64,000 nt of DNA from contig OZ246010.1 in the NCBI GenBank assembly GCA_965230535.1, positions 48,637 through 112,636 of the forward strand. The letters run 5' to 3'. The stretch comes from Parvicellaceae bacterium (GTDB lineage: Bacteria; Bacteroidota; Bacteroidia; Flavobacteriales_D; JAUILH01). A model generated the notes under the pieces. That model searched no databases. It was given only the letters and a program-made list of their open reading frames with translations, and was not told the DNA's origin. Both the position numbers and the translations under genes were made by a program. How positions within the stretch are numbered: the stretch's first letter is position 1; every line of letters starts with the position of its first letter. Of this stretch, positions 20,600 through 30,573 are shown piece after piece.

Positions 20600-21358
20600 A
20601 TGATTATGGAAGATTTATTATTTAAATACTGTTGCAGACTGGGTGATAACGCACTTGTCCTGAGCCACAGATTGGGAGAATACTCGTCTCACGGACCGTT
20701 TCTTGAAGAAGATTTAGCCATTACCAATGTCGCTTTAGATTTGATTGGTCAGTGCGAGTCCATTCTAAAATATGCCGGACAGGTTGAAAACAAAGGTCGA
20801 ACCGAAGACGATTTGGCCTACAGAAGACCGGAAAGAGAATTTTTGAATTGCCAGTTGGTTGAGCAGGCAAACACAGATTTTGCCTACATCATGTTGCGTC
20901 AGTTTTTTATGGACGTATATCACTTGTACTTATACGAAGGCTTGATGGATAGCAGTGATGAGACATTGAGAGCCATTGCCGGCAAGTCGATTAAAGAAGT
21001 GAAATACCACGTGAGAAGAAGCCATGACTGGATGATTCGATTAGGAAATGGCACAGAAGAAAGTCGTACAAGACTACAAAATGCCATTAATGACCTTTGG
21101 GTGTATACCGGAGAATTGTTTGAAAGTGATGAAGTTGAAAACGAATTGGTGAGTTTGGGTGTTGCAGCTGATCCTGAAACCATCAAATCGAACTGGGACA
21201 AACTCGTTAGTGAGACAATGAGGGAAGCCAAAATAACCATTCCGGACAATTCTTACATGGCCACTGGTGGCCGAAACGGGATCCATACCGAGCATTTGGG
21301 TTATTTAATTGCCCAAATGCAGTTTTTACCTACATCTTACCCTGACGCCAAGTGGTAA
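20600..21358 (+). CDS. paaC: 1,2-phenylacetyl-CoA epoxidase subunit C
   Basis: 'RLGDNALVLSHRLGEYSSHGPFLEEDLAITNVALDLIGQ' is typical of PaaC (PaaI in older nomenclature). Confidence 0.8.
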   Translation: MIMEDLLFKYCCRLGDNALVLSHRLGEYSSHGPFLEEDLAITNVALDLIGQCESILKYAGQVENKGRTEDDLAYRRPEREFLNCQLVEQANTDFAYIMLRQFFMDVYHLYLYEGLMDSSDETLRAIAGKSIKEVKYHVRRSHDWMIRLGNGTEESRTRLQNAINDLWVYTGELFESDEVENELVSLGVAADPETIKSNWDKLVSETMREAKITIPDNSYMATGGRNGIHTEHLGYLIAQMQFLPTSYPDAKW

Positions 21359-21380
21359 GCGGTAGCCAATTATGAAAAAG

Positions 21381-21410
21381 AAAAGCTCAATCGGAAGGTT
21401 GGGCTTTTTT
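21381..21410 (+). terminator. rho-independent terminator of paaC (copy 1 of an inverted pair)
   Basis: aaaaGCTCAATCggaaGGTTGGGCtttttt. The stem is fully paired on the + strand RNA through two G:U wobbles. Confidence 0.7.
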
Positions 21411-22191
21411 ATTTGAATCTTTTTAGTCTGCGAAGATTTGGCAGTAAATCGTTCTTCGTTATACTATACGCTGCATTTGTACAGACAACACCTATAAAGG
21501 TTAATACTATCACAGTAATCACTTCTCCATATCCCCCAGTCCAATCTATTATACTCTCTATACTTCCCCAGAAAAGAATAAACGCAAAAAATCCCGCGAA
21601 CAAAATTCCAAGAGAGGCATGAAATACTTCTTTTCTCACCTGACCAATATTGATCGTTACCTTTCTCAAATTATACACTCTATGCGAAAAGCTAATAGAA
21701 TCAGCGACAAATTCTATCATTTCTTCCTCATCAAAAGATTCTAATTCAGAGTGCCCTTGAGTATCTTCTATCAGAGCTTCAAATCGGACATTTTCATTTC
21801 TTTTAAATAGATCCCAGTAAAACGTAACTGAATTCTTTTCTTTGTCCAGGGTGGCCTCTATGATCTTATCATTGTTTATTAATCTAAATTCAACCCACCT
21901 CAAATTATCAGGTAACTCGGCGTTGACATTTTTGACGATATCCCTTTCGATCATATCCTTATTACTAGCGTTCCTTATCTCCACCTGAAAGAAAATTAAG
22001 TTTTTCTCAATTTCATTATTGTTATAAAAGACCTTGATATTATATTCACCAAGACTTGACAGATTCCTTGTCAACAAAGGAATGGCCTTCGTTATTTTAC
22101 AATCTATTCGAACTCCATTCTTATCACGTAAAGACAGTGAAATTCCAAAAAGCTTTAAAAGCCACTCTATTGCTCCAACAATTACATCCAT
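21409..22191 (-). CDS. orphan hypothetical protein with two C-terminal TM helices
   Basis: 260 aa with a soluble N-terminal region, then 'ASLGILFAGFFAFILFWGSI' and 'VITVIVLTFIGVVCTNAAY'. The gene is AT-rich and sits between inverted terminator copies. Confidence 0.55.
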   Translation of the reverse strand: MDVIVGAIEWLLKLFGISLSLRDKNGVRIDCKITKAIPLLTRNLSSLGEYNIKVFYNNNEIEKNLIFFQVEIRNASNKDMIERDIVKNVNAELPDNLRWVEFRLINNDKIIEATLDKEKNSVTFYWDLFKRNENVRFEALIEDTQGHSELESFDEEEMIEFVADSISFSHRVYNLRKVTINIGQVRKEVFHASLGILFAGFFAFILFWGSIESIIDWTGGYGEVITVIVLTFIGVVCTNAAYSITKNDLLPNLRRLKRFK

Positions 22192-22287
22192 AATAATTCT
22201 TTAGTTAAAGATCAACTGTCTTAACATAACTTGCTTCACCGAAAACCATGATTCTCTTCCTCCCTTAAAACCGTTAAAACACTATAC

Positions 22288-22323
22288 AAAAAAGCCCAAC
22301 CGTATAAACGATTGAGCTTTTTT
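22288..22323 (-). terminator. rho-independent terminator of the usp gene (copy 2, inverted)
   Basis: The minus strand reads aaaaaaGCTCAATCgtttatacGGTTGGGCtttttt, with the same arms as 21381-21410. Confidence 0.65.
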
Positions 22324-22344
22324 AGTCGACTTACCTTTAAAATC

Positions 22345-23169
22345 CTAACCCTCTTTCAGCACCAGCAAAGGCAAATCTGTGTGCATACTTAGTTTCCTGG
22401 ACAAACTTCTGTGCAGAAGATTCCCAAAGAAACCGTAGTCACGAGCGATGACTACTAAGAGGTCAGCTTGTATCTCGTGGCAGAAGTCCAGTATATCGTC
22501 TTCCGCTTCTGTGATTTTTCTAAAATGAAATTCCGGCTCTCTGTTTTTGAACAGACCGGTAATTCTTGAAATTTCCTGTTCACTTTCTTCCTGATGCAGA
22601 TCTTTTGTCAACAGGTTTAGAATGTGCACGTCCAGATCCATGGCGTTTACAGCCTCATAAATCGTTTCCAGAGATTCAGAACTTTCCAATTCCTTCAGAT
22701 CACTGGCAAACACCACTTTATTGGTATGACCAATCTTACAATCGTTTGGCACCAGCAGAACCGGCTTTTTAATAGACTGCATGATGTTAGAGGCATTACT
22801 TCCCAGTACATGTTCCGTAATTCCGGTAGCTCCGGTTGTTCCGATTACCAATAAATCAACGCCATGTTCCTCAATAATTCTGTCTATGGTCGTTAACAAA
22901 GTTCCCTGCACCACATTGGATTTGATGTTTGCGCCCGGAAATTGAGCTTTCATCTTCTCAACGCATTCGTCCATCTCTTCATGACGGTCCTTACTCATGA
23001 TCGCCTCCAGATCGGTGGTCATCACGCCTCCGGCATATCTCAGTTTGTAGGTATGCAGAAACTCAAAACTCTCCGCTTTGTCGGCAAAGGTTTTCAGTGC
23101 GTATTCGGCCGCTTTGGTGGCATTCTCCGAAAAATCCGTAGGAATCAATATCTTTTTAAATCCGCTCAT
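22345..23169 (-). CDS. tandem-domain universal stress protein (UspA family)
   Basis: 'KKILIPTDFSENA' and ATP motif 'VIGTTGATGITEHVLGSNA'. A second Usp module follows. Confidence 0.8.
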   Translation of the reverse strand: MSGFKKILIPTDFSENATKAAEYALKTFADKAESFEFLHTYKLRYAGGVMTTDLEAIMSKDRHEEMDECVEKMKAQFPGANIKSNVVQGTLLTTIDRIIEEHGVDLLVIGTTGATGITEHVLGSNASNIMQSIKKPVLLVPNDCKIGHTNKVVFASDLKELESSESLETIYEAVNAMDLDVHILNLLTKDLHQEESEQEISRITGLFKNREPEFHFRKITEAEDDILDFCHEIQADLLVVIARDYGFFGNLLHRSLSRKLSMHTDLPLLVLKEG

Positions 23170-23181
23170 CTCAATTCTTGT

Positions 23182-23559
23182 TTAGTGTTCTCTCTCCAGC
23201 GAACGGTTATTCTGCTCTTCCAATGTCCAACTGTCGGTCACAGTCGTTTCCAGCCACACATCTCCGGACTTTCTAAAAACCTGAACGTGTAAACCATAAT
23301 TCGTTTCAAAGGCTTCTTCCAAACTAGACACCGACATATCCGGAGCCACTTTTAAAGACCCTTCTGTATGATTGTTTCTCACTGAGCCAAGTGTCAGTTC
23401 GGGCGAGATCATATCATTCTTGTGAGAACCTTCGCCATCCTCATGTGCTTTAGAAAAAAACTCAAGTTTTAATTGAGAAAAGATCCCGTTAAACTGCTCT
23501 TGAATTTCTGAGATTTTAAGATCATCTGATAATGTTAGTTCTGTTGTATTTGTGCTCAT
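23182..23559 (-). CDS. hypothetical protein
   Basis: 125-aa ORF 12 nt upstream of usp on the same strand. No recognisable motif. Confidence 0.5.
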   Translation of the reverse strand: MSTNTTELTLSDDLKISEIQEQFNGIFSQLKLEFFSKAHEDGEGSHKNDMISPELTLGSVRNNHTEGSLKVAPDMSVSSLEEAFETNYGLHVQVFRKSGDVWLETTVTDSWTLEEQNNRSLEREH

Positions 23560-23706
23560 AGTACTTGTTTTGTACCAAAGTTCACAAATGGGCCTGGGGA
23601 ATTATATGACGGGAGTCAGGGTTTTGGGTGATGTTTGTTAGGGGGATATATCCCAATCTATGTCAGATATAACTGTTATAATATCCGAAACCTAATCTCC
23701 ATAGAC

Positions 23707-25311
23707 CTACTTTGTGTTTGCATGCGAGATCTCATTTTCAGAAAATTCCATTTCCTTATGAAATTTGCTCCAAATATTTGCTCCCTGTTGAGCTATCCTA
23801 TCATCAAGGTTAATTTCCTTCATACATTCATTTGCCTTATGTATGTAACTAAGGTAGTTCCCCCAATCGTATCTTTTGTAAACAATTAATTTCTCTTCTG
23901 AAGACTCCTTTTCCGTGTGTATTATTTTTCTTTTGGCACCCCTACTAGTGAATTTCTTGTACAATCTTGATTTGAAAATCCTTTTACTAGCATTAGTTGG
24001 CTTAGAAGCATAATAAGTAGATCTTCTAAATGAACGTTTCATGTTCCTATAAAACTTAGAAAAACCAGAAGTCTTAATTAAAACTCCATCTCCATTGAAT
24101 TCAAATCCCAAATACTCTAGTTGCTTATTTTCATTAACAACTCCACTTTTCACCAAACCTCCAGTCAGTTTCCCTTTCTCTAAACAATAGCGATAAATTT
24201 TCTGTTTTTCCTTTTGGATATCAAGATTAACTGTATTGGTTATTTGGTCTTGCAGAAGTTTGATAAAATACTCCTCGTCGACTTGATCGCAAACTATTAT
24301 GATATCATCACTATATCTCTGATAGAATGCATTCTTCCTTAAAGCCTTATCAAAAACCTTTTCATCAAAATCTATCATGTAGATATTTGCCAAAGTAGCA
24401 CTCATAGGTGTACCTTGTGGTATTCCCTTTCTGACACAACTCTCCTTACCTTTACACCTGCTGTGCTGATGACTGCATTTTTTTTCTGCTCGAATCAAGT
24501 CTGTTGATGTTCTGAAAAAATCAGATTTACTACAAAAAGCAACAACATTTTCCTTACGCATGAATCGCATTTTCTTAAGACTGATATTTCTCAATCGCTT
24601 CCTTTTGTTATTCCCTGGAACTCCTCTTTCAGCGATGAGCTTATGTTTAAAACGATTGAATAAATCTTTTTCATTTACAAACCTTTTAACCACAAGGCTT
24701 TTATATACATTATAGTGATCTTTTGGAAGCCTTACACAATGATCTCCTAGAATCTTTTCCCAATTGCGCTTCAAGATATCATGATCTAGGTTATCGAAAA
24801 AAGAGGTTATATCAGATATCACTATAGACAATCTTCTATTCTGATTATTTTGTATGAATTTAAAAGAGTCTCTTGCGAACTCTATGTTACACTTGCATTT
24901 TTTACTCTTCTCTTTTATTGGGATTTTACGATAAGCCACAGCAGAGACAGAATAGTCCTTGTCCTTCATATACCTTTCATACAGCTTATTTAACTGAAAT
25001 TGATAGTAGCTGTACACCATAGCATCAAGGTGGGAAGCATAAAACAAAGGTCTTTCCTTAGGTGACTTTGCTTCTCGATTTCGTTTTCCTATAGCTTCCG
25101 GTTTAGGTTTAGGGATAGCTCTGAACTTTCTCTGGTACTTTGTCCTATGTAATAAGGGGGTAAATTTATGTTTGGCTATTTTATTTTCATTGGTAACATA
25201 GCTTATTATTTTGTATTTATCTTTTCGCGTAAGTGGATGCCCTATATGTGGGTATTTCTTGAACTTTAACCATTCAGGAACAGAATCGTATTTCTTACTC
25301 TTATTTTTCAT
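23707..25311 (-). CDS. stand-alone reverse transcriptase (UG/Abi-like, unclassified)
   Basis: RT motif A 'ISDITSFFDNLDH', motif B 'GIPQGTPMSATLANIYM', motif C 'YQRYSDDIIIVCD', motif 7 'LEYLGFEF'. About 100 aa are inserted between motifs A and B. The C-terminal ~140 aa is basic. Start moved to ATG 25311 (MKNKSKKYD). Confidence 0.85.
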   Translation of the reverse strand: MKNKSKKYDSVPEWLKFKKYPHIGHPLTRKDKYKIISYVTNENKIAKHKFTPLLHRTKYQRKFRAIPKPKPEAIGKRNREAKSPKERPLFYASHLDAMVYSYYQFQLNKLYERYMKDKDYSVSAVAYRKIPIKEKSKKCKCNIEFARDSFKFIQNNQNRRLSIVISDITSFFDNLDHDILKRNWEKILGDHCVRLPKDHYNVYKSLVVKRFVNEKDLFNRFKHKLIAERGVPGNNKRKRLRNISLKKMRFMRKENVVAFCSKSDFFRTSTDLIRAEKKCSHQHSRCKGKESCVRKGIPQGTPMSATLANIYMIDFDEKVFDKALRKNAFYQRYSDDIIIVCDQVDEEYFIKLLQDQITNTVNLDIQKEKQKIYRYCLEKGKLTGGLVKSGVVNENKQLEYLGFEFNGDGVLIKTSGFSKFYRNMKRSFRRSTYYASKPTNASKRIFKSRLYKKFTSRGAKRKIIHTEKESSEEKLIVYKRYDWGNYLSYIHKANECMKEINLDDRIAQQGANIWSKFHKEMEFSENEISHANTK

Positions 25312-25670
25312 GGTACAAACAGGGACTGGTCTCGGCACGCTATTATGTTAATACATGCTAATTTGCTACTTCTGTTACACATAGGTAGCGCCGATCTTTT
25401 TTAGAATAATGTTACTATCTTTATATACAATGATGCATAATTCAGACATAACGGTCTTAATCCTCAGTCTCCATAGGACCTCCCTAAATTGGTTGTCCAA
25501 GATTTGGAAAACTGGAATTCACCTACACACGTCAGCAGACTTAGTCTCTGCGCGTGATACACAAGAGTGCACTATTTAAAAAACGTACTAACCAGTCTTC
25601 CCAGTCCCTTTTCTTTTTACACTTGATATTTTCTAAGACAAGTATTAATTTCTATTGTGTGCAAGCTAGA
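25312..25670 (-). ncRNA. candidate RT-associated non-coding RNA region (hypothetical)
   Basis: No ORF of 60 aa or more between the helicase stop (25736) and the RT start. A TAnnTTTG-type -7 box (TAGTTTTG on the minus strand) sits at 25677-25684. A long-range 9-bp complementarity pairs 25600-25608 with 25321-25329. No expression evidence. Confidence 0.3.
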
Positions 25671-25735
25671 AATAATCAAAACTAATGACATCCCAGAAAA
25701 CCATGATTTACATTCTCCCTGATTTCCCCAAAAAA

Positions 25736-26854
25736 CTACATCTTCCTTATCATAATCCCCAGCTTCTTGCCCAAACTATGAATATAATTCACTTCTGAGG
25801 CTGTGATGAGAGCCAAAGACAAGCCCTCCTTCCCTGCTCTGGCGGTTCTACCACTTCTGTGGGTGTAGTTTTCTTCTTTTTCTGGTAATTGGTGATGGAT
25901 GACAAAGCCGAGTTCTTTGACGTCAATTCCGCGGGCTGCCACATCTGTTGCAACGAGCACATCAATGGTTTCGTTGACAAACATACGCATCACTTTGTCT
26001 CTCTCTTTCTGCAATAAATCTCCATGAATGGCTCCGGCTTTGATGTTTTTGGCTTTTAACTGACTGGCCAGTTTTTGAGCCCCTTTCTTGGTTCTGCAGA
26101 AAATAACACCTCTGTCGCCAGACCTGCTTTTAAGAAAACGGACTATGATGTGGAGTTTGTCGTCGATCTGGCATTCTACATACCTGTGTTCAATGTTTTT
26201 ATTGACGAGATTTTTCTTGTCTACGTGCACTCTGATGGCGCCTTTACCAATGTGTCGTTGAATGAGTTCATTGATTTCTGCCGGAAGCGTGGCTGAGAAC
26301 AGCCAAACATGTCTATCGGTTTTAATCAGTTCCATGATGTGATCGATTTCTGCTTTGAATCCCATATTCAGCATCTCATCTGCTTCATCGAGCACCACAG
26401 TTTGAATGTGACTGAAGTCTATGGCGTTCTTGTTATACAAGTCGATCAATCTACCTGGTGTGGCTACCACAACCTGCGTTGGTCTTTTCAAAGCATTGAT
26501 CTGGTTGAGAATGTGAGCGCCTCCGTAAACCGCTTCACAAAACACTTTTTTAGGCAAGTACTTGGTGAATTTGAAAATCTGTTTGGAGATCTGAAGTCCC
26601 AATTCCCTTGTAGGTGTGATAATCAAAGCCTGAACGTGTTTATTATCCGGATCAATGTTCTGAATAATCGGGAGTCCGAAAGCAGCTGTCTTCCCCGTTC
26701 CGGTTGGTGCCTGAGCCACAAAATCTACGGCAGAGTCCAGCAAATCCGGAATAGATTTCTCCTGAATTTCGGTTGGGCTTTTAATCCCAATCTCAGTCAG
26801 GGCCTGTCTTAGTTCCTTATTAATTCCAAGTTCTCTGAAAGTGCTCATAGACAA
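25736..26854 (-). CDS. DEAD-box ATP-dependent RNA helicase
   Basis: Motif I 'AQAPTGTGKT', motif II 'VLDEADEML', motif III 'SAT', motif VI 'HRSGRTARAG'. Confidence 0.9.
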   Translation of the reverse strand: MSMSTFRELGINKELRQALTEIGIKSPTEIQEKSIPDLLDSAVDFVAQAPTGTGKTAAFGLPIIQNIDPDNKHVQALIITPTRELGLQISKQIFKFTKYLPKKVFCEAVYGGAHILNQINALKRPTQVVVATPGRLIDLYNKNAIDFSHIQTVVLDEADEMLNMGFKAEIDHIMELIKTDRHVWLFSATLPAEINELIQRHIGKGAIRVHVDKKNLVNKNIEHRYVECQIDDKLHIIVRFLKSRSGDRGVIFCRTKKGAQKLASQLKAKNIKAGAIHGDLLQKERDKVMRMFVNETIDVLVATDVAARGIDVKELGFVIHHQLPEKEENYTHRSGRTARAGKEGLSLALITASEVNYIHSLGKKLGIMIRKM

Positions 26855-26894
26855 AATTTAGAGCACAAAGCTAGTTCATTTAAAGCAGCTCCAT

Positions 26895-26930
26895 AAAAAA
26901 AGTCGCTCCTCAATTTGAGAAACGACTTTT
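26895..26930 (-). terminator. terminator of the T9SS adhesin gene
   Basis: The minus strand reads aaaaGTCGtttCTCAAatTTGAGgagCGACttttttt. Confidence 0.55.
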
Positions 26931-26953
26931 CATCTAATCAGGTAAGGGAAGAA

Positions 26954-29900
26954 CTATTGCTTTACTACCCTCCTAACAACTCTTCCAGTATCACCTGACA
27001 CAACTATGTAGTAGATTCCTTTAACATGCTCATTTAAATTGATTTGAATTGATTTGCCTGACATGTTTCTTGAATAGATTTCCTGACCAATTGAGTTAAG
27101 AACAGACACCTGATACTTTCCTGTTGCTCCTTCAATGTTCAACATGAAATCATCTGTAAAAGGATTCGGATAAACCTGAATCTGATTGTCACTTAACTCT
27201 TCCAAGCCAACCGAATTGATGTTGTGACAACTGGATGTGTCCGAACAAATACCATCTGTCAACACAAGTGCATAGTTTCCATTTGCACTGGCCGTGAATG
27301 ATTGTCCGGTTTCTCCTGAAATAGCAGCATAATTATTATCACAATCCACCCATTGGTAACTCACTCCAGACTGAACAGCTGTTAAGGTAATTCCAGAGGC
27401 AGTCACATTCGTATCGATATTAATTACAGTTAAGTCCAGCGTCAACACACTGTCACAGCCAGCAGCATTCGGAATGGTATCCATATAAATTCCGGTAGCA
27501 CTGTAAGTCATTCCATCATGCGCCCAAACATAATCCCCACAGGACGTAATGGTTTCTGTACTGGAACTAGAGTTATTGACAGTTAAATTGATTGTAATCA
27601 CACTATCACAGCCAACTACATTTGGAATGGTGTCCATATAAACTCCACTACTCGTATATACTTCATCTCCCGACGGTACGGTATAACTGTCGCACTCAAC
27701 CAATGTTATTGAAGATGAACTGGAGTTATTAATTGTTAGGTTAATCGTGAGCACACTATCACACCCAGCCACATTTGGGATGGTATCCATATAAACCCCA
27801 GATGTAGTATATGTTTCATCTCCACTAGGTACGGTATAACTATCACACTCAACCAATGTTATAGAAGACGTACTGGAGTTGTTGATTGTTAAGTTAATAG
27901 TGATCACACTATCACACCCAACCGCATTCGGAAGCGTATCCATATAAACACCAGATGTGGTATAAGTTTCATCTCCACTTGGAACGGTATAACTATCACA
28001 CTCAACCAAAGTCATGGAAGATGCACTGGAGTTGTTAATTGTTAAATTGATTGTAATGACGCTATCACATCCAGCTACATTTGGAATGGTATCCATATAT
28101 ACACCAGATGTGGTATAAGTTTCATCTCCACTTGGAACGGTATAACTATCGCACTCAACCAAAGTCATGGAAGACGTACTGGAATTGTTAATTGTTAAGT
28201 TAATCGTGATTACACTGTCACAACCAGTAGAGTTTGGAATGGTGTCCATATATACACCGGTACTTGTATAAGTCTCGTCACCGGATGGCACGGTATAACT
28301 ATCGCACTCTACTAAAGTCAATGTTGAAGTAGAAGAATAATTGATTGTAAGATTTATAGTTAAGACACTGTCGCAACCAACTGCATTTGGAAGTGTATCC
28401 ATGTAAACGCCACTTGTTGTATAAGTCTCATCTCCACTTGGCACTGTGTAAGTATTGCATTCTATTACATTGATGCTGTTTGTAGTAGAATGGTTAACCG
28501 TCAAGTTAACTGTAATCACACTGTCGCAACCAACTGCATTCGGAATGGTATCCATATAAACACCACTTGTTGTGTAGGCCTCATCTCCACTTGGAACTGT
28601 ATAGCTATCACAAACCGTCGTAGTAATTGAAGAACTCGTTCCGTAAATCATGCTTAGATTAATGGTGATGATACTGTCGCAACCACCTACATTAGGAATG
28701 GTATCCGTATACACACCACTAACTGTGTAAGTCTCGTCTCCACTTGGAACGATATAAGCGTCACACTCAGTAAGCGTAATGCTTGAAGATGTTTGCAAAC
28801 AGCCTCCTAATTCGTATGCTCCCAAATCTACAGCTCCATTTCTTGTTGCGAATCTTTGGTCCAGAGTTGGCGAAAAAGTAGAACTTCCATTGTTAATCGC
28901 ATCACTCAAAGGATTTACAAGCGCAATGGTTGGTGTTGTCCCCCCGTTATTCAGAGGTCCCAGAGGATCTAAACCAGGATTGGAACTGTAAGTCCATCCC
29001 GGAGTATAAGATGTCCCATGCTCTACCAAATTGTTAGACACATCAAAGGCAAAACCAAAGTTTTCCCATCTCACATCTTCAGATCCGGCATCCGCCAGGT
29101 TATTATAGATAATATTGTTATGAAGTATTCTTGGACCAACACCTGTGTATACATAGATACCTCCTCCTCTGCTCCAGGTAGCACCTCCAGATATTTCGTT
29201 ATTCGCAATGGTATTATTCACAAGTCTAATTGAATCTACATGACCAATCAATGCACCTCCTCCACGCGCAGTGTTGCCAGAGCTCGTTTGCATGGTGTTG
29301 CCATATATGGTTGTGTTTTCCATCAAAAGATAATCTCCGCCCGTAGAAGAATGAAAACCACCGCCTTCTGCAATTCCTGTAATAGTAGATCCGGAATTAT
29401 TCATAATTGTAGTTCTGGTTAGGTAAGTATCTCCCTGGCCTATGGAAATACCACCTCCAAAGCAACTACCACTTCCCGCCGTAACGGCACCAGAATTTGA
29501 TCGCACAATACATTCGTCAATGATCGCTGATCCGGCACTGTTATAGAAACCTCCACCTAAAGCCTGAGCGCCTGCGGTGGAAATGTGGTTATTTTCTATT
29601 AGGCATTTTCTTACGGATAAGGTAGCATTGGCATCTCCCTCAATACAAAATCCACCGCCCCTGCATTGTCCGGAACCTGTTGAACTAAAAGTATGGTTCG
29701 TGAATGAGCAATTCTCAATAGTCAAATCTAAAGGGTAAATAGATGCTCCGCTTCCGAAAATCCCTCCACCTTTTCGAGCACTCGAATTGGTTCCTGTTAC
29801 CAAGTTTTGATCAAAAGTACAGTTGCTTACAGTAGCAGCCGATCCCAAAAAACGGATTGCGCCTGCTACGGCATCTCCTGAATTGGTTTTTCTAACCTCA

Positions 29901-30493
29901 TTCTTCACAAATGTGCAATTGTCTATAATAATCGTATTGACTGATGTGTTTCCAAATGAGATACTGATAGCACCTCCACCAAAATTTCCATTCAGGGCCA
30001 AATTGCCATAAAAACTGCAATTATAGATTTCGGTGTTACCGGTGTAATGATTGTTTACCGCTCCTCCGGCACCAGCTTGGTTATTTTGGAAATGACAAGC
30101 GAACAAAGTCAGGTTACCTGTTTGGTCAACATTAATGGCACCACCCGAGTTACTAATTACACCGTCAATAAATCTAATACCTTCAATGTAAACCTCATTA
30201 TCTATCTCGAGACAACGTATTGCGCCACCTCCACTAATAATGGTGCTTAAACTGTCGTTACCTATAACCACCAGATCTTTATTAATGGTTACCTGACTAC
30301 TCAGTACAATAGTATTTCCATCAGTGGATACATCAAAGCGAATGGTATCATTGGCACTTGCATCCAGTACAGCCTGTCTGAAACTTCCCGCTCCGGAATT
30401 GGCCGAATTGGTCACAGTAATTGTGCTTGAAAATGACGATGAACCCACCAGCAGCAACGTGAGCCCAAAGATTAAGTGTTGAATTGTTTTCAT
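26954..30493 (-). CDS. secreted right-handed beta-helix protein with nine 51-aa Cys-pair repeats and a T9SS C-terminal sorting domain
   Basis: Signal peptide 'MKTIQHLIFGLTLLLVGSSS'. Many 'GGAI/GGGF..N.S' PbH1-like turns. Repeat unit 'ECDSYTVPSGDETYTTSGVYMDTIPNxxGCDSVITINLT'. C-terminal domain 'QVYPNPFTDDFMLNIEG...GIYYIVV'. Confidence 0.8.
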   Translation of the reverse strand: MKTIQHLIFGLTLLLVGSSSFSSTITVTNSANSGAGSFRQAVLDASANDTIRFDVSTDGNTIVLSSQVTINKDLVVIGNDSLSTIISGGGAIRCLEIDNEVYIEGIRFIDGVISNSGGAINVDQTGNLTLFACHFQNNQAGAGGAVNNHYTGNTEIYNCSFYGNLALNGNFGGGAISISFGNTSVNTIIIDNCTFVKNEVRKTNSGDAVAGAIRFLGSAATVSNCTFDQNLVTGTNSSARKGGGIFGSGASIYPLDLTIENCSFTNHTFSSTGSGQCRGGGFCIEGDANATLSVRKCLIENNHISTAGAQALGGGFYNSAGSAIIDECIVRSNSGAVTAGSGSCFGGGISIGQGDTYLTRTTIMNNSGSTITGIAEGGGFHSSTGGDYLLMENTTIYGNTMQTSSGNTARGGGALIGHVDSIRLVNNTIANNEISGGATWSRGGGIYVYTGVGPRILHNNIIYNNLADAGSEDVRWENFGFAFDVSNNLVEHGTSYTPGWTYSSNPGLDPLGPLNNGGTTPTIALVNPLSDAINNGSSTFSPTLDQRFATRNGAVDLGAYELGGCLQTSSSITLTECDAYIVPSGDETYTVSGVYTDTIPNVGGCDSIITINLSMIYGTSSSITTTVCDSYTVPSGDEAYTTSGVYMDTIPNAVGCDSVITVNLTVNHSTTNSINVIECNTYTVPSGDETYTTSGVYMDTLPNAVGCDSVLTINLTINYSSTSTLTLVECDSYTVPSGDETYTSTGVYMDTIPNSTGCDSVITINLTINNSSTSSMTLVECDSYTVPSGDETYTTSGVYMDTIPNVAGCDSVITINLTINNSSASSMTLVECDSYTVPSGDETYTTSGVYMDTLPNAVGCDSVITINLTINNSSTSSITLVECDSYTVPSGDETYTTSGVYMDTIPNVAGCDSVLTINLTINNSSSSSITLVECDSYTVPSGDEVYTSSGVYMDTIPNVVGCDSVITINLTVNNSSSSTETITSCGDYVWAHDGMTYSATGIYMDTIPNAAGCDSVLTLDLTVINIDTNVTASGITLTAVQSGVSYQWVDCDNNYAAISGETGQSFTASANGNYALVLTDGICSDTSSCHNINSVGLEELSDNQIQVYPNPFTDDFMLNIEGATGKYQVSVLNSIGQEIYSRNMSGKSIQINLNEHVKGIYYIVVSGDTGRVVRRVVKQ
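27411..28790 (-). repeat. nine tandem 153-bp (51-codon) coding repeats
   Basis: The string 'tataagtttcatctccacttggaacggtataactatc' recurs at 27961 and 28114, giving a period of 153 nt. Internal copies are the most similar. Confidence 0.85.
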
Positions 30494-30573
30494 GGTCGAT
30501 TTGTTTACCACAAAGAACTTTCATCTTTCAACTCAAATCAACCGCATAAAGATGCGGGCCTTACCATATGTAA

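Follow-up and report, generated by a model that had tools for sequence, protein, structure and literature searches.

A Bacteroidota DRT2-family reverse transcriptase with an upstream structured RNA predicted to template a never-ending open reading frame

The stretch of DNA analysed (the window) comprised 64,000 nucleotides of contig OZ246010.1 (assembly GCA_965230535.1, positions 48,637 to 112,636 of the forward strand) from a Parvicellaceae bacterium of the Bacteroidota, and all positions given are those of the window. The window contained a reverse transcriptase (RT) gene on the minus strand, directly preceded on the same strand by a conserved, structured non-coding RNA (ncRNA). Both were compared with the DRT2 anti-phage system of Klebsiella pneumoniae (KpnDRT2; Tang et al. 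2024, 10.1101/2024.05.08.593200; Wilkinson et al. 2024, PMC12039810; PDB 9c0i). The published work on DRT2 predicts a poorly conserved template bracketed by repeats, a repeat unit that comprises whole codons, an antisense frame free of stops and promoter halves that meet only across the junction of joined units. The comparison set consisted of 80 genomic loci encoding relatives of the RT.

The open reading frame (ORF) of the RT extended over 23707..25338 on the minus strand and coded for 543 aa counted from a GTG, or 534 aa (23707..25311) counted from the ATG at 25311. The protein was full length, with the catalytic YSDD and all family-invariant residues present. A first-pass annotation, made from the sequence alone, had described this gene as a stand-alone RT and, with an ncRNA, as a candidate defence module, and the RT motifs that it quoted (ISDITSFFDNLDH, GIPQGTPMSATLAN, YSDD and YLGF) were all found in the translation. 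Its statement that no maturase, endonuclease or effector domain was present agreed with the Pfam search, which returned RVT_1 only. As stated, every ORF in the 424-nt interval upstream of the gene (25312-25735) was shorter than 60 aa, with the three longest at 56, 43 and 41 aa, and the neighbours were also those described, a DEAD-box helicase upstream and a Usp protein downstream.

The class of the RT, which the first-pass annotation had left unassigned, was identified as DRT2/UG2 by a PADLOC profile, by sequence match to KpnDRT2 and by predicted fold. PADLOC Drt2 (PDLC03757) matched aa 6-526 of the RT with an E-value of 6.6e-128 and 425.8 bits, while the best class other than DRT2 was RT_UG17 (2.7e-25) and Drt9 gave 7.5e-14. 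The nearest solved structure by sequence was KpnDRT2 (PDB 9c0i, E=1e-41). An AlphaFold2 model built from 90 homologues (pLDDT 86.8, pTM 0.84) was searched with Foldseek and matched 9c0i_A at E=1.8e-32 with TMt 0.82; the runner-up was DRT9 (E about 1e-11, TMt 0.40-0.43), followed by group II intron RTs (2e-10) and the RT of a diversity-generating retroelement (E=1.3e-7). As modelled, the RT adopts the KpnDRT2 fold, a right-hand RT that has a long helical thumb and an insertion in the fingers. The first-pass annotation had noted a large inserted stretch between motifs A and B and an extension at the C-terminus; both are largely features of the DRT2 family, their KpnDRT2 counterparts being the fingers insertion and the long helical thumb, which bind the ncRNA. 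Relative to KpnDRT2 the RT was enlarged by about 33 aa in the A-B insertion and by about 40 aa in extra C-terminal helices. The gene showed the minimal DRT2 architecture, namely RVT_1 alone, with no effector and no conserved partner gene. More than 3000 homologues were found, the nearest being Bacteroidota proteins of about 520 aa with 50-56% identity. The RT lies outside the canonical Kpn-like subfamily and is a divergent Bacteroidota DRT2. Two loci with an RT of the Bacteroidota type (L036 and L051) occurred in metagenome-assembled genomes labelled Variovorax paradoxus and Gammaproteobacteria; these labels could reflect binning contamination or horizontal transfer.

Comparison of the upstream regions with nhmmer showed that about 290 nt directly upstream of the RT start (about 25317-25612) were conserved at the DNA level in 37 of the 80 loci, which were those with an RT identity of at least 49%. 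The distal part of the interval (about 120 nt) showed no conservation in the relatives. The conserved structured ncRNA, defined by nhmmer, by the alignment (A2) and by a 46-pair structure, spans about 287 nt (25322..25608, minus strand), is bounded by the stem P1 and has its 3' end 10 nt upstream of the RT start codon. The structure consisted of a long-range stem from RNAalifold and a terminal stem added by eye. In the alignment, 93.1% of the cells were paired in this structure, compared with 28-43% in slid controls, and 22 pairs had compensatory double changes. The covariation score was 0.349 against 0.04-0.11 in the controls, and the observed values were reached by none of 500 shuffles. The core proposal of the first-pass annotation, a single-gene defence RT that works with a structured ncRNA encoded directly upstream, was therefore supported by both the conservation and the covariation.

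The 5' arm of P1 (GGGACTGG, 25601..25608, minus strand) pairs with 25322-25329 (CCAGTCCC) as a perfect 8-bp helix that covaries across the loci. The 5' arm of the RNAalifold stem P2 (25584..25596, minus strand) pairs with 25339-25355, and 10 of its 12 pairs form in the window; its pair types included AU:23/GC:11, UA:24/CG:12 and GC:19/AU:17. Within this long-range stem lie the 5' hairpins and the template as well as some of the 3' scaffold. In the 5' handle, directly upstream of the template, lies the hairpin P4 (CACGCGCAG...CTGACGTGTG, 25526..25556, minus strand), for which 98.8% of the cells were paired and 4 pairs showed compensatory change. All helices of the clade structure can form in the ncRNA of the window. 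An Rfam scan of 23000-26500 at E<=10 gave chance-level matches only, with no DRT2, retron or intron family.

The -7 box cited in the first-pass annotation (TAGTTTTG, 25677..25684, minus strand, 68 nt upstream of P1 and the conserved RNA) was present, and it was uninformative as support: chance alone predicts 64 occurrences of TAnnTTTG in the window and 57 were counted, so the box, a possible promoter element for the ncRNA and RT transcript, carries no weight. A sigma-70 promoter scan of the interval gave nothing above chance and is not applicable to this phylum, and no terminator was found between the element and the helicase gene. In the relatives L001-L034, a conserved motif resembling TGG-N7/8-TTTGTGA was observed about 20 nt upstream of P1 (A2 columns about 13-28), in some of them as a perfect TAnnTTTG, and it is probably the promoter of their ncRNA.

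The least conserved part of the ncRNA (A2) was a segment of 111 nt (25408..25518, minus strand), equal to 37 codons, which is the predicted template for complementary DNA (cDNA) and corresponds to one repeat unit. Its 5' boundary is formed by the first copy of a putative jump motif, ATTCC (25514..25518, minus strand), which was kept in 38 of 38 loci of the window's clade, and its 3' boundary by the second copy, ATTCTA (25402..25407, minus strand), 111 nt from the first. The two copies are the putative functional analogues of the KpnDRT2 elements ACA-1 and ACA-2. In the second copy TTCTA was invariant and the leading A was present in 37 of 38 loci. The bracket ATTC...ATTC was found in 38/38 loci, with one mismatch in L032, and L030 had changed both copies together, to TTTCC (copy 1) and TTTCTA (copy 2). 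The distance between the motifs was a multiple of 3 in 38/38 loci, with 8 different lengths, the unit of the window measuring 111 nt and those of the other loci 126-144 nt.

What matters most in the ncRNA, a permuted promoter and an open frame on the opposite strand, was absent from the first-pass annotation. Exactly one antisense frame, the same one each time, was circularly open in 38/38 loci; the chance of the same frame being open was 0.038 per locus, and the units formed 10 clusters below 70% identity. In the window this predicted neo frame (25409..25519, plus strand) is circularly stop-free and would encode the 37-aa repeat MLLSLYTMMHNSDITVLILSLHRTSLNWLSKIWKTGI. The Neo repeats of the clade were hydrophobic, with a mean grand average of hydropathy (GRAVY) of about 1.0 and transmembrane-like windows of 19 aa in 32/38; the repeat of the window itself had a GRAVY of 0.51, resembling the 0.66 of the canonical drt2 analysed as a control.

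The promoter consensus of Bacteroidota is TTTG ... TAnnTTTG at -33/-7 (PMC2483708, PMC7366714). Across the junction of joined units, (T)TTG-N20-TAnnTTT[G/A] was found in 37/38 loci with a spacer of exactly 20 nt, and no locus of the 38 had TTTG-N20-TAnnTTT[G/A] in linear arrangement. In the window, the -7 box TATCTTTA (25416..25423, plus strand) lies 8 nt after the start of the unit, where TAnnTTT[G/A] was present in 37/38 loci, and the -33 element TTTG (25503..25506, plus strand) lies 12 nt before its end. The TTTG comes to stand 20 nt upstream of TATCTTTA only upon head-to-tail joining, as a 12|8 split. An in-frame ATG followed the -7 box at 6-30 nt (mode 15) in 37/38 loci; in the window the candidate start codons are ATGATG (25430..25435, plus strand), 6 nt after the box. 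A motif-agnostic scan for the full Bacteroidota signature detected it in 68 of 81 loci; the control strand yielded 2 and shuffled sequences about 1.

As a positive control, the PGAP-annotated drt2 of Photobacterium damselae plasmid pPHDD1 (NZ_CP065043, L081) was analysed identically. It belongs, unlike the RT of the window, to the canonical gamma-proteobacterial clade, being 50% identical to the Kpn RT, and like the window it had a 111-nt unit, here bracketed by ACAGAT and ATAGAT, in which a single antisense frame was circularly open. Its promoter, TTGACA-N17-TATAAT, arose only where units are joined. The method therefore recovers the architecture described in the literature.

A second clade of Bacteroidota DRT2 was observed among L035-L080 (for example L035, L041 and L074), made up of 31 of the 43 loci with 41-46% RT identity. 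Its jump motif was ATACC in the RNA sense (antisense GGTAT), and its units measured 150, 153, 156 or 159 nt. The junction read TTTG-11 nt|9 nt-TATCTTTG, and the spacer was 20 nt in 31/31 despite a split of 11|9 instead of 12|8. Twelve related loci (L055, L060, L063, L066, L068-L073, L077 and L078) had conserved upstream regions and antisense open stretches of 189-300 nt, and contained no recognisable -33/-7 junction promoter, even at relaxed spacing. These loci may represent a third variant with other expression signals.

Family and fold of the RT, conservation and covariation of the ncRNA, the flanking repeat, the codon-multiple unit, the open frame, the junction-only promoter and the conserved ATG together point to a locus that, by analogy with KpnDRT2, probably works by DRT2-type neo gene synthesis adapted to Bacteroidota. 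The RT would bind the ncRNA scaffold, made up of the closing stems P1 and P2, the 5' hairpins and the 3' hairpins, and would copy the 111-nt template from 25518 to 25408. At the first ATTC, the 3' end of the cDNA (GAAT) could re-anneal to the identical second ATTC at the opposite end of the template, and repeated jumps of this kind would amount to rolling-circle reverse transcription, giving a head-to-tail concatemer with the predicted junction CTGGAAT|AATGTTAC. After second-strand synthesis, each junction would create a Bacteroidota sigma-A promoter consisting of TTTG, 20 nt and TATCTTTA, which would drive an mRNA antisense to the ncRNA, with units of 37 codons that contain an ATG and no stop. 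The resulting never-ending ORF (Neo) would be translated and would arrest the infected cell. Synthesis of the cDNA, the phage trigger, transcription and the toxicity of Neo are all inferred by homology with KpnDRT2, as would be any expression of the copy in the window.

The likeness to KpnDRT2 extends over the whole layout. Both loci have a single RT gene of the same fold without an effector, an ncRNA of similar length directly upstream on the same strand (281 nt in Kpn, about 287 nt in the window), a variable template between short direct repeats with a unit of 120 nt (Kpn) or 111 nt (window), a stop-free antisense frame, and a promoter split between the two ends of the unit, its halves being united only at the junction. 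The parts differ. The RTs are about 24% identical, and that of the window is 109 aa longer (534 aa against 425 aa). The jump motif is ACA in KpnDRT2 and ATTC in the window, and the promoter is a sigma-70 -35/-10 with 17 nt in the former and a Bacteroidota -33/-7 with a 20-nt spacer in the latter. By sequence, no alignment of the window's ncRNA with a canonical DRT2 ncRNA was obtained, and, unlike in KpnDRT2, its 5' and 3' ends are brought together by long-range stems. In the window's clade, no Shine-Dalgarno site is expected and the Neo repeats are much more hydrophobic. Junction promoters are also found in circular transposition intermediates, an analogy drawn in both DRT2 papers, with -35-like and -10-like halves at opposite ends; these are joined by excision and circularisation of DNA, not by reverse transcription of RNA.

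Several results weigh against neo gene synthesis at this locus or against the assignment on which it rests. The RT scored 303.9 bits with the NCBIfam Drt2 equivalog NF041746, below its cut-off of 390, and its homologues at NCBI consequently bear only the name "reverse transcriptase domain-containing protein", which makes it understandable that the first-pass annotation assigned no class. A profile of the clade ncRNA gave no match at E<=10 to one canonical DRT2 locus, in a comparison of sequence only. The clade, unlike KpnDRT2, is known from sequence alone. The ACA motifs of the Kpn clade were absent, their place being taken by ATTC (window's clade) or ATACC (second clade); ACA is clade-specific, because even the canonical control has ACAGAT and ATAGAT. 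The diversity at the three codon positions of the Neo frame (0.432/0.366/0.432) gave no clear excess at the third position, a measure that is confounded by the constraints of RNA structure and promoter. A motif-agnostic scan of a single sequence for circular ORFs gave about 9 matches whether the sequence was real or shuffled; it does not discriminate, and the comparative evidence was relied on for this reason. In all relatives there were linear ORFs comparable to that of the window, the frame being open for 24-48 nt before and 13-97 nt past the unit, so that openness and a length divisible by 3 cannot by themselves separate a circular from a linear reading. The use of these two features as proof of circular reading was accordingly downgraded. 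Finally, the TGG-N7/8-TTTGTGA motif was absent from the window at about 20 nt before P1, which makes expression of its ncRNA uncertain.

This last observation bears on the alternative that the window holds a decayed or silent copy, of DRT2 type and non-functional in this genome. In line with it, the window is the outlier of its clade: no other unit is as short as its 111 nt, none of the relatives found exceeds 56% RT identity with it, and the conserved motif upstream of P1 is missing. We consider decay unlikely, however, as the RT is full length with the family-invariant residues and YSDD, all helices can form, and the deletion that shortened the unit left it in frame and open, with promoter spacing and ATG intact.

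Another alternative, in keeping with the linear ORFs, is a conventional small antisense gene, such as one for a hydrophobic peptide resembling a type I toxin. In the linear genome, the neo frame of the window lies within an ATG-initiated ORF of 56 aa (25409-25579, plus strand) that continues into sequence antisense to the hairpin of the 5' handle. Under this explanation the ORF would be transcribed from genomic DNA by means of the -7 box alone, the ncRNA would be an antisense regulator and/or a scaffold of the RT, and no concatenation would take place. A linear ORF reaching past the unit was present in every locus, indels in multiples of 3 are equally expected of it, the -7 box stands upstream of the ATG in the genome too, -33 elements are not always detectable in Flavobacterium promoters, and the peptides are hydrophobic. 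Such a gene nevertheless leaves unexplained the flanking direct repeat and its co-variation in L030, the exact 20-nt spacer across the junction in two clades (12|8 and 11|9), and the analogous sigma-70 geometry of canonical drt2; moreover, the demonstrated product of the RT's family is a concatemer. The preference for a circular over a linear reading rests on the flanking repeat and its co-variation, on the 20-nt spacer under two splits and on the demonstrated chemistry of the family, and an ordinary antisense gene appears quite improbable.

A DRT2-related RT could also template another product, with frame and promoter being incidental. DRT9 and DRT10 (UG28/UG17) are RTs guided by an ncRNA, and the DNA they synthesise is a homopolymer or a tandem repeat (PMC12483538, PMC12632851). 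They resemble the window in having a single-gene UG/Abi RT, an ncRNA in cis and a repetitive DNA product (predicted for the window), and differ from it in their non-coding products and protein-primed synthesis, with the UG17 and Drt9 profiles matching the RT of the window only at the E-values given above. Neo annotation has been published for relatives of Kpn only, and Tang et al. (10.1101/2024.05.08.593200) called it "more challenging" for divergent clades of DRT2 and brought up the possibility of other mechanisms. The 12 related loci without the junction-promoter signature and the lack of clearly visible coding selection on Neo would fit a non-coding repetitive or homopolymeric product. On the other hand, the full signature was present in 68 of 81 loci against 1-2 in the controls, the ATG was conserved, the DRT9 model (7.5e-14) and fold (TMt 0.41) were far worse matches, and even the 12 signature-less loci kept their 189-300 nt antisense open stretches, which makes a different product very improbable.

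That the RT is part of a retroelement, mobile or otherwise (a group II intron, a retron or a diversity-generating retroelement), as weak RT-domain matches to group II (TIGR04416, 67.4 bits) and retron RT models might suggest, has a negligible chance, since profile, RNA and repeat searches placed it outside all three classes: scores were far under the cut-offs (67.4 against 300 for group II, 50 against 235 for retrons), the best retron RT models reached only 1e-11 to 1e-13, Pfam showed no maturase or endonuclease domain, Rfam no group II intron RNA or retron msr at E<=10, no repeat resembling a template repeat/variable repeat pair lay within 21000-28000, and such folds gave TMt of at most 0.58 at E>=2e-10 against 0.82 at 1.8e-32 for DRT2.

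The surroundings of the element were also examined. The earlier statement that the RT has no partner ORF held insofar as none was conserved beside the RT in the 80 related loci; an ORF of 125 aa (23182-23559, minus strand) does separate the RT from usp. This ORF and another of 260 aa (21409-22191, minus strand) near the RT matched no Pfam family, and no homologue of either was found in any of the 80 related loci, for which reason the 125-aa ORF is not regarded as a conserved partner. Synteny with the DEAD-box helicase as an insertion hotspot was considered and rejected, a helicase being present in 2 of 80 loci, with 24-37% identity and at other positions. An imperfect direct repeat of 30 nt (24/30 identical) was observed at 22236-22265 and 25691-25720, bracketing a 3.5-kb block with the ncRNA, the RT, the 125-aa ORF and usp. 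It occurred in two copies only in the 64-kb window (0 expected), and such a pair was found in none of 100 shuffles. The repeats may be att-like scars of an inserted cassette, and no integrase lies inside the block. Further along, a protein of 1185 aa (26954-30511, minus strand) carried a type IX secretion C-terminal sorting domain and an array of tandem repeats of 153 nt (51 aa) each, which is in favour of a Bacteroidota host.

No description of Bacteroidota DRT2 clades was found in the papers that could be read, and a preprint (10.64898/2026.09.22.753630) mentioning DRT2 and Bacteroid- terms may hold one. We tentatively propose, with considerable reservation, that the Bacteroidota own at least two DRT2 subfamilies (ATTC and ATACC) and possibly a third, that neo has been re-tooled there for -33/-7 promoters and translation without Shine-Dalgarno sites, and that the hydrophobic Neo implies a membrane-directed effector. 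Such an effector would differ from Kpn Neo, for which a soluble alpha-solenoid has been proposed. Irrespective of this proposal, the locus of the window and its 80 relatives indicate that DRT2 logic extends to another phylum with all host-specific parts swapped, namely the jump motif, the class and spacing of the promoter and the translation signals. Such a swap is in effect a natural experiment and supports the junction promoter and the frame as selected features. Simple sequence rules for the annotation of neo in Bacteroidota follow from it, as do testable templates for work in Flavobacterium or Bacteroides, and many entries now named "reverse transcriptase domain-containing protein" can be reassigned to a defined defence family.

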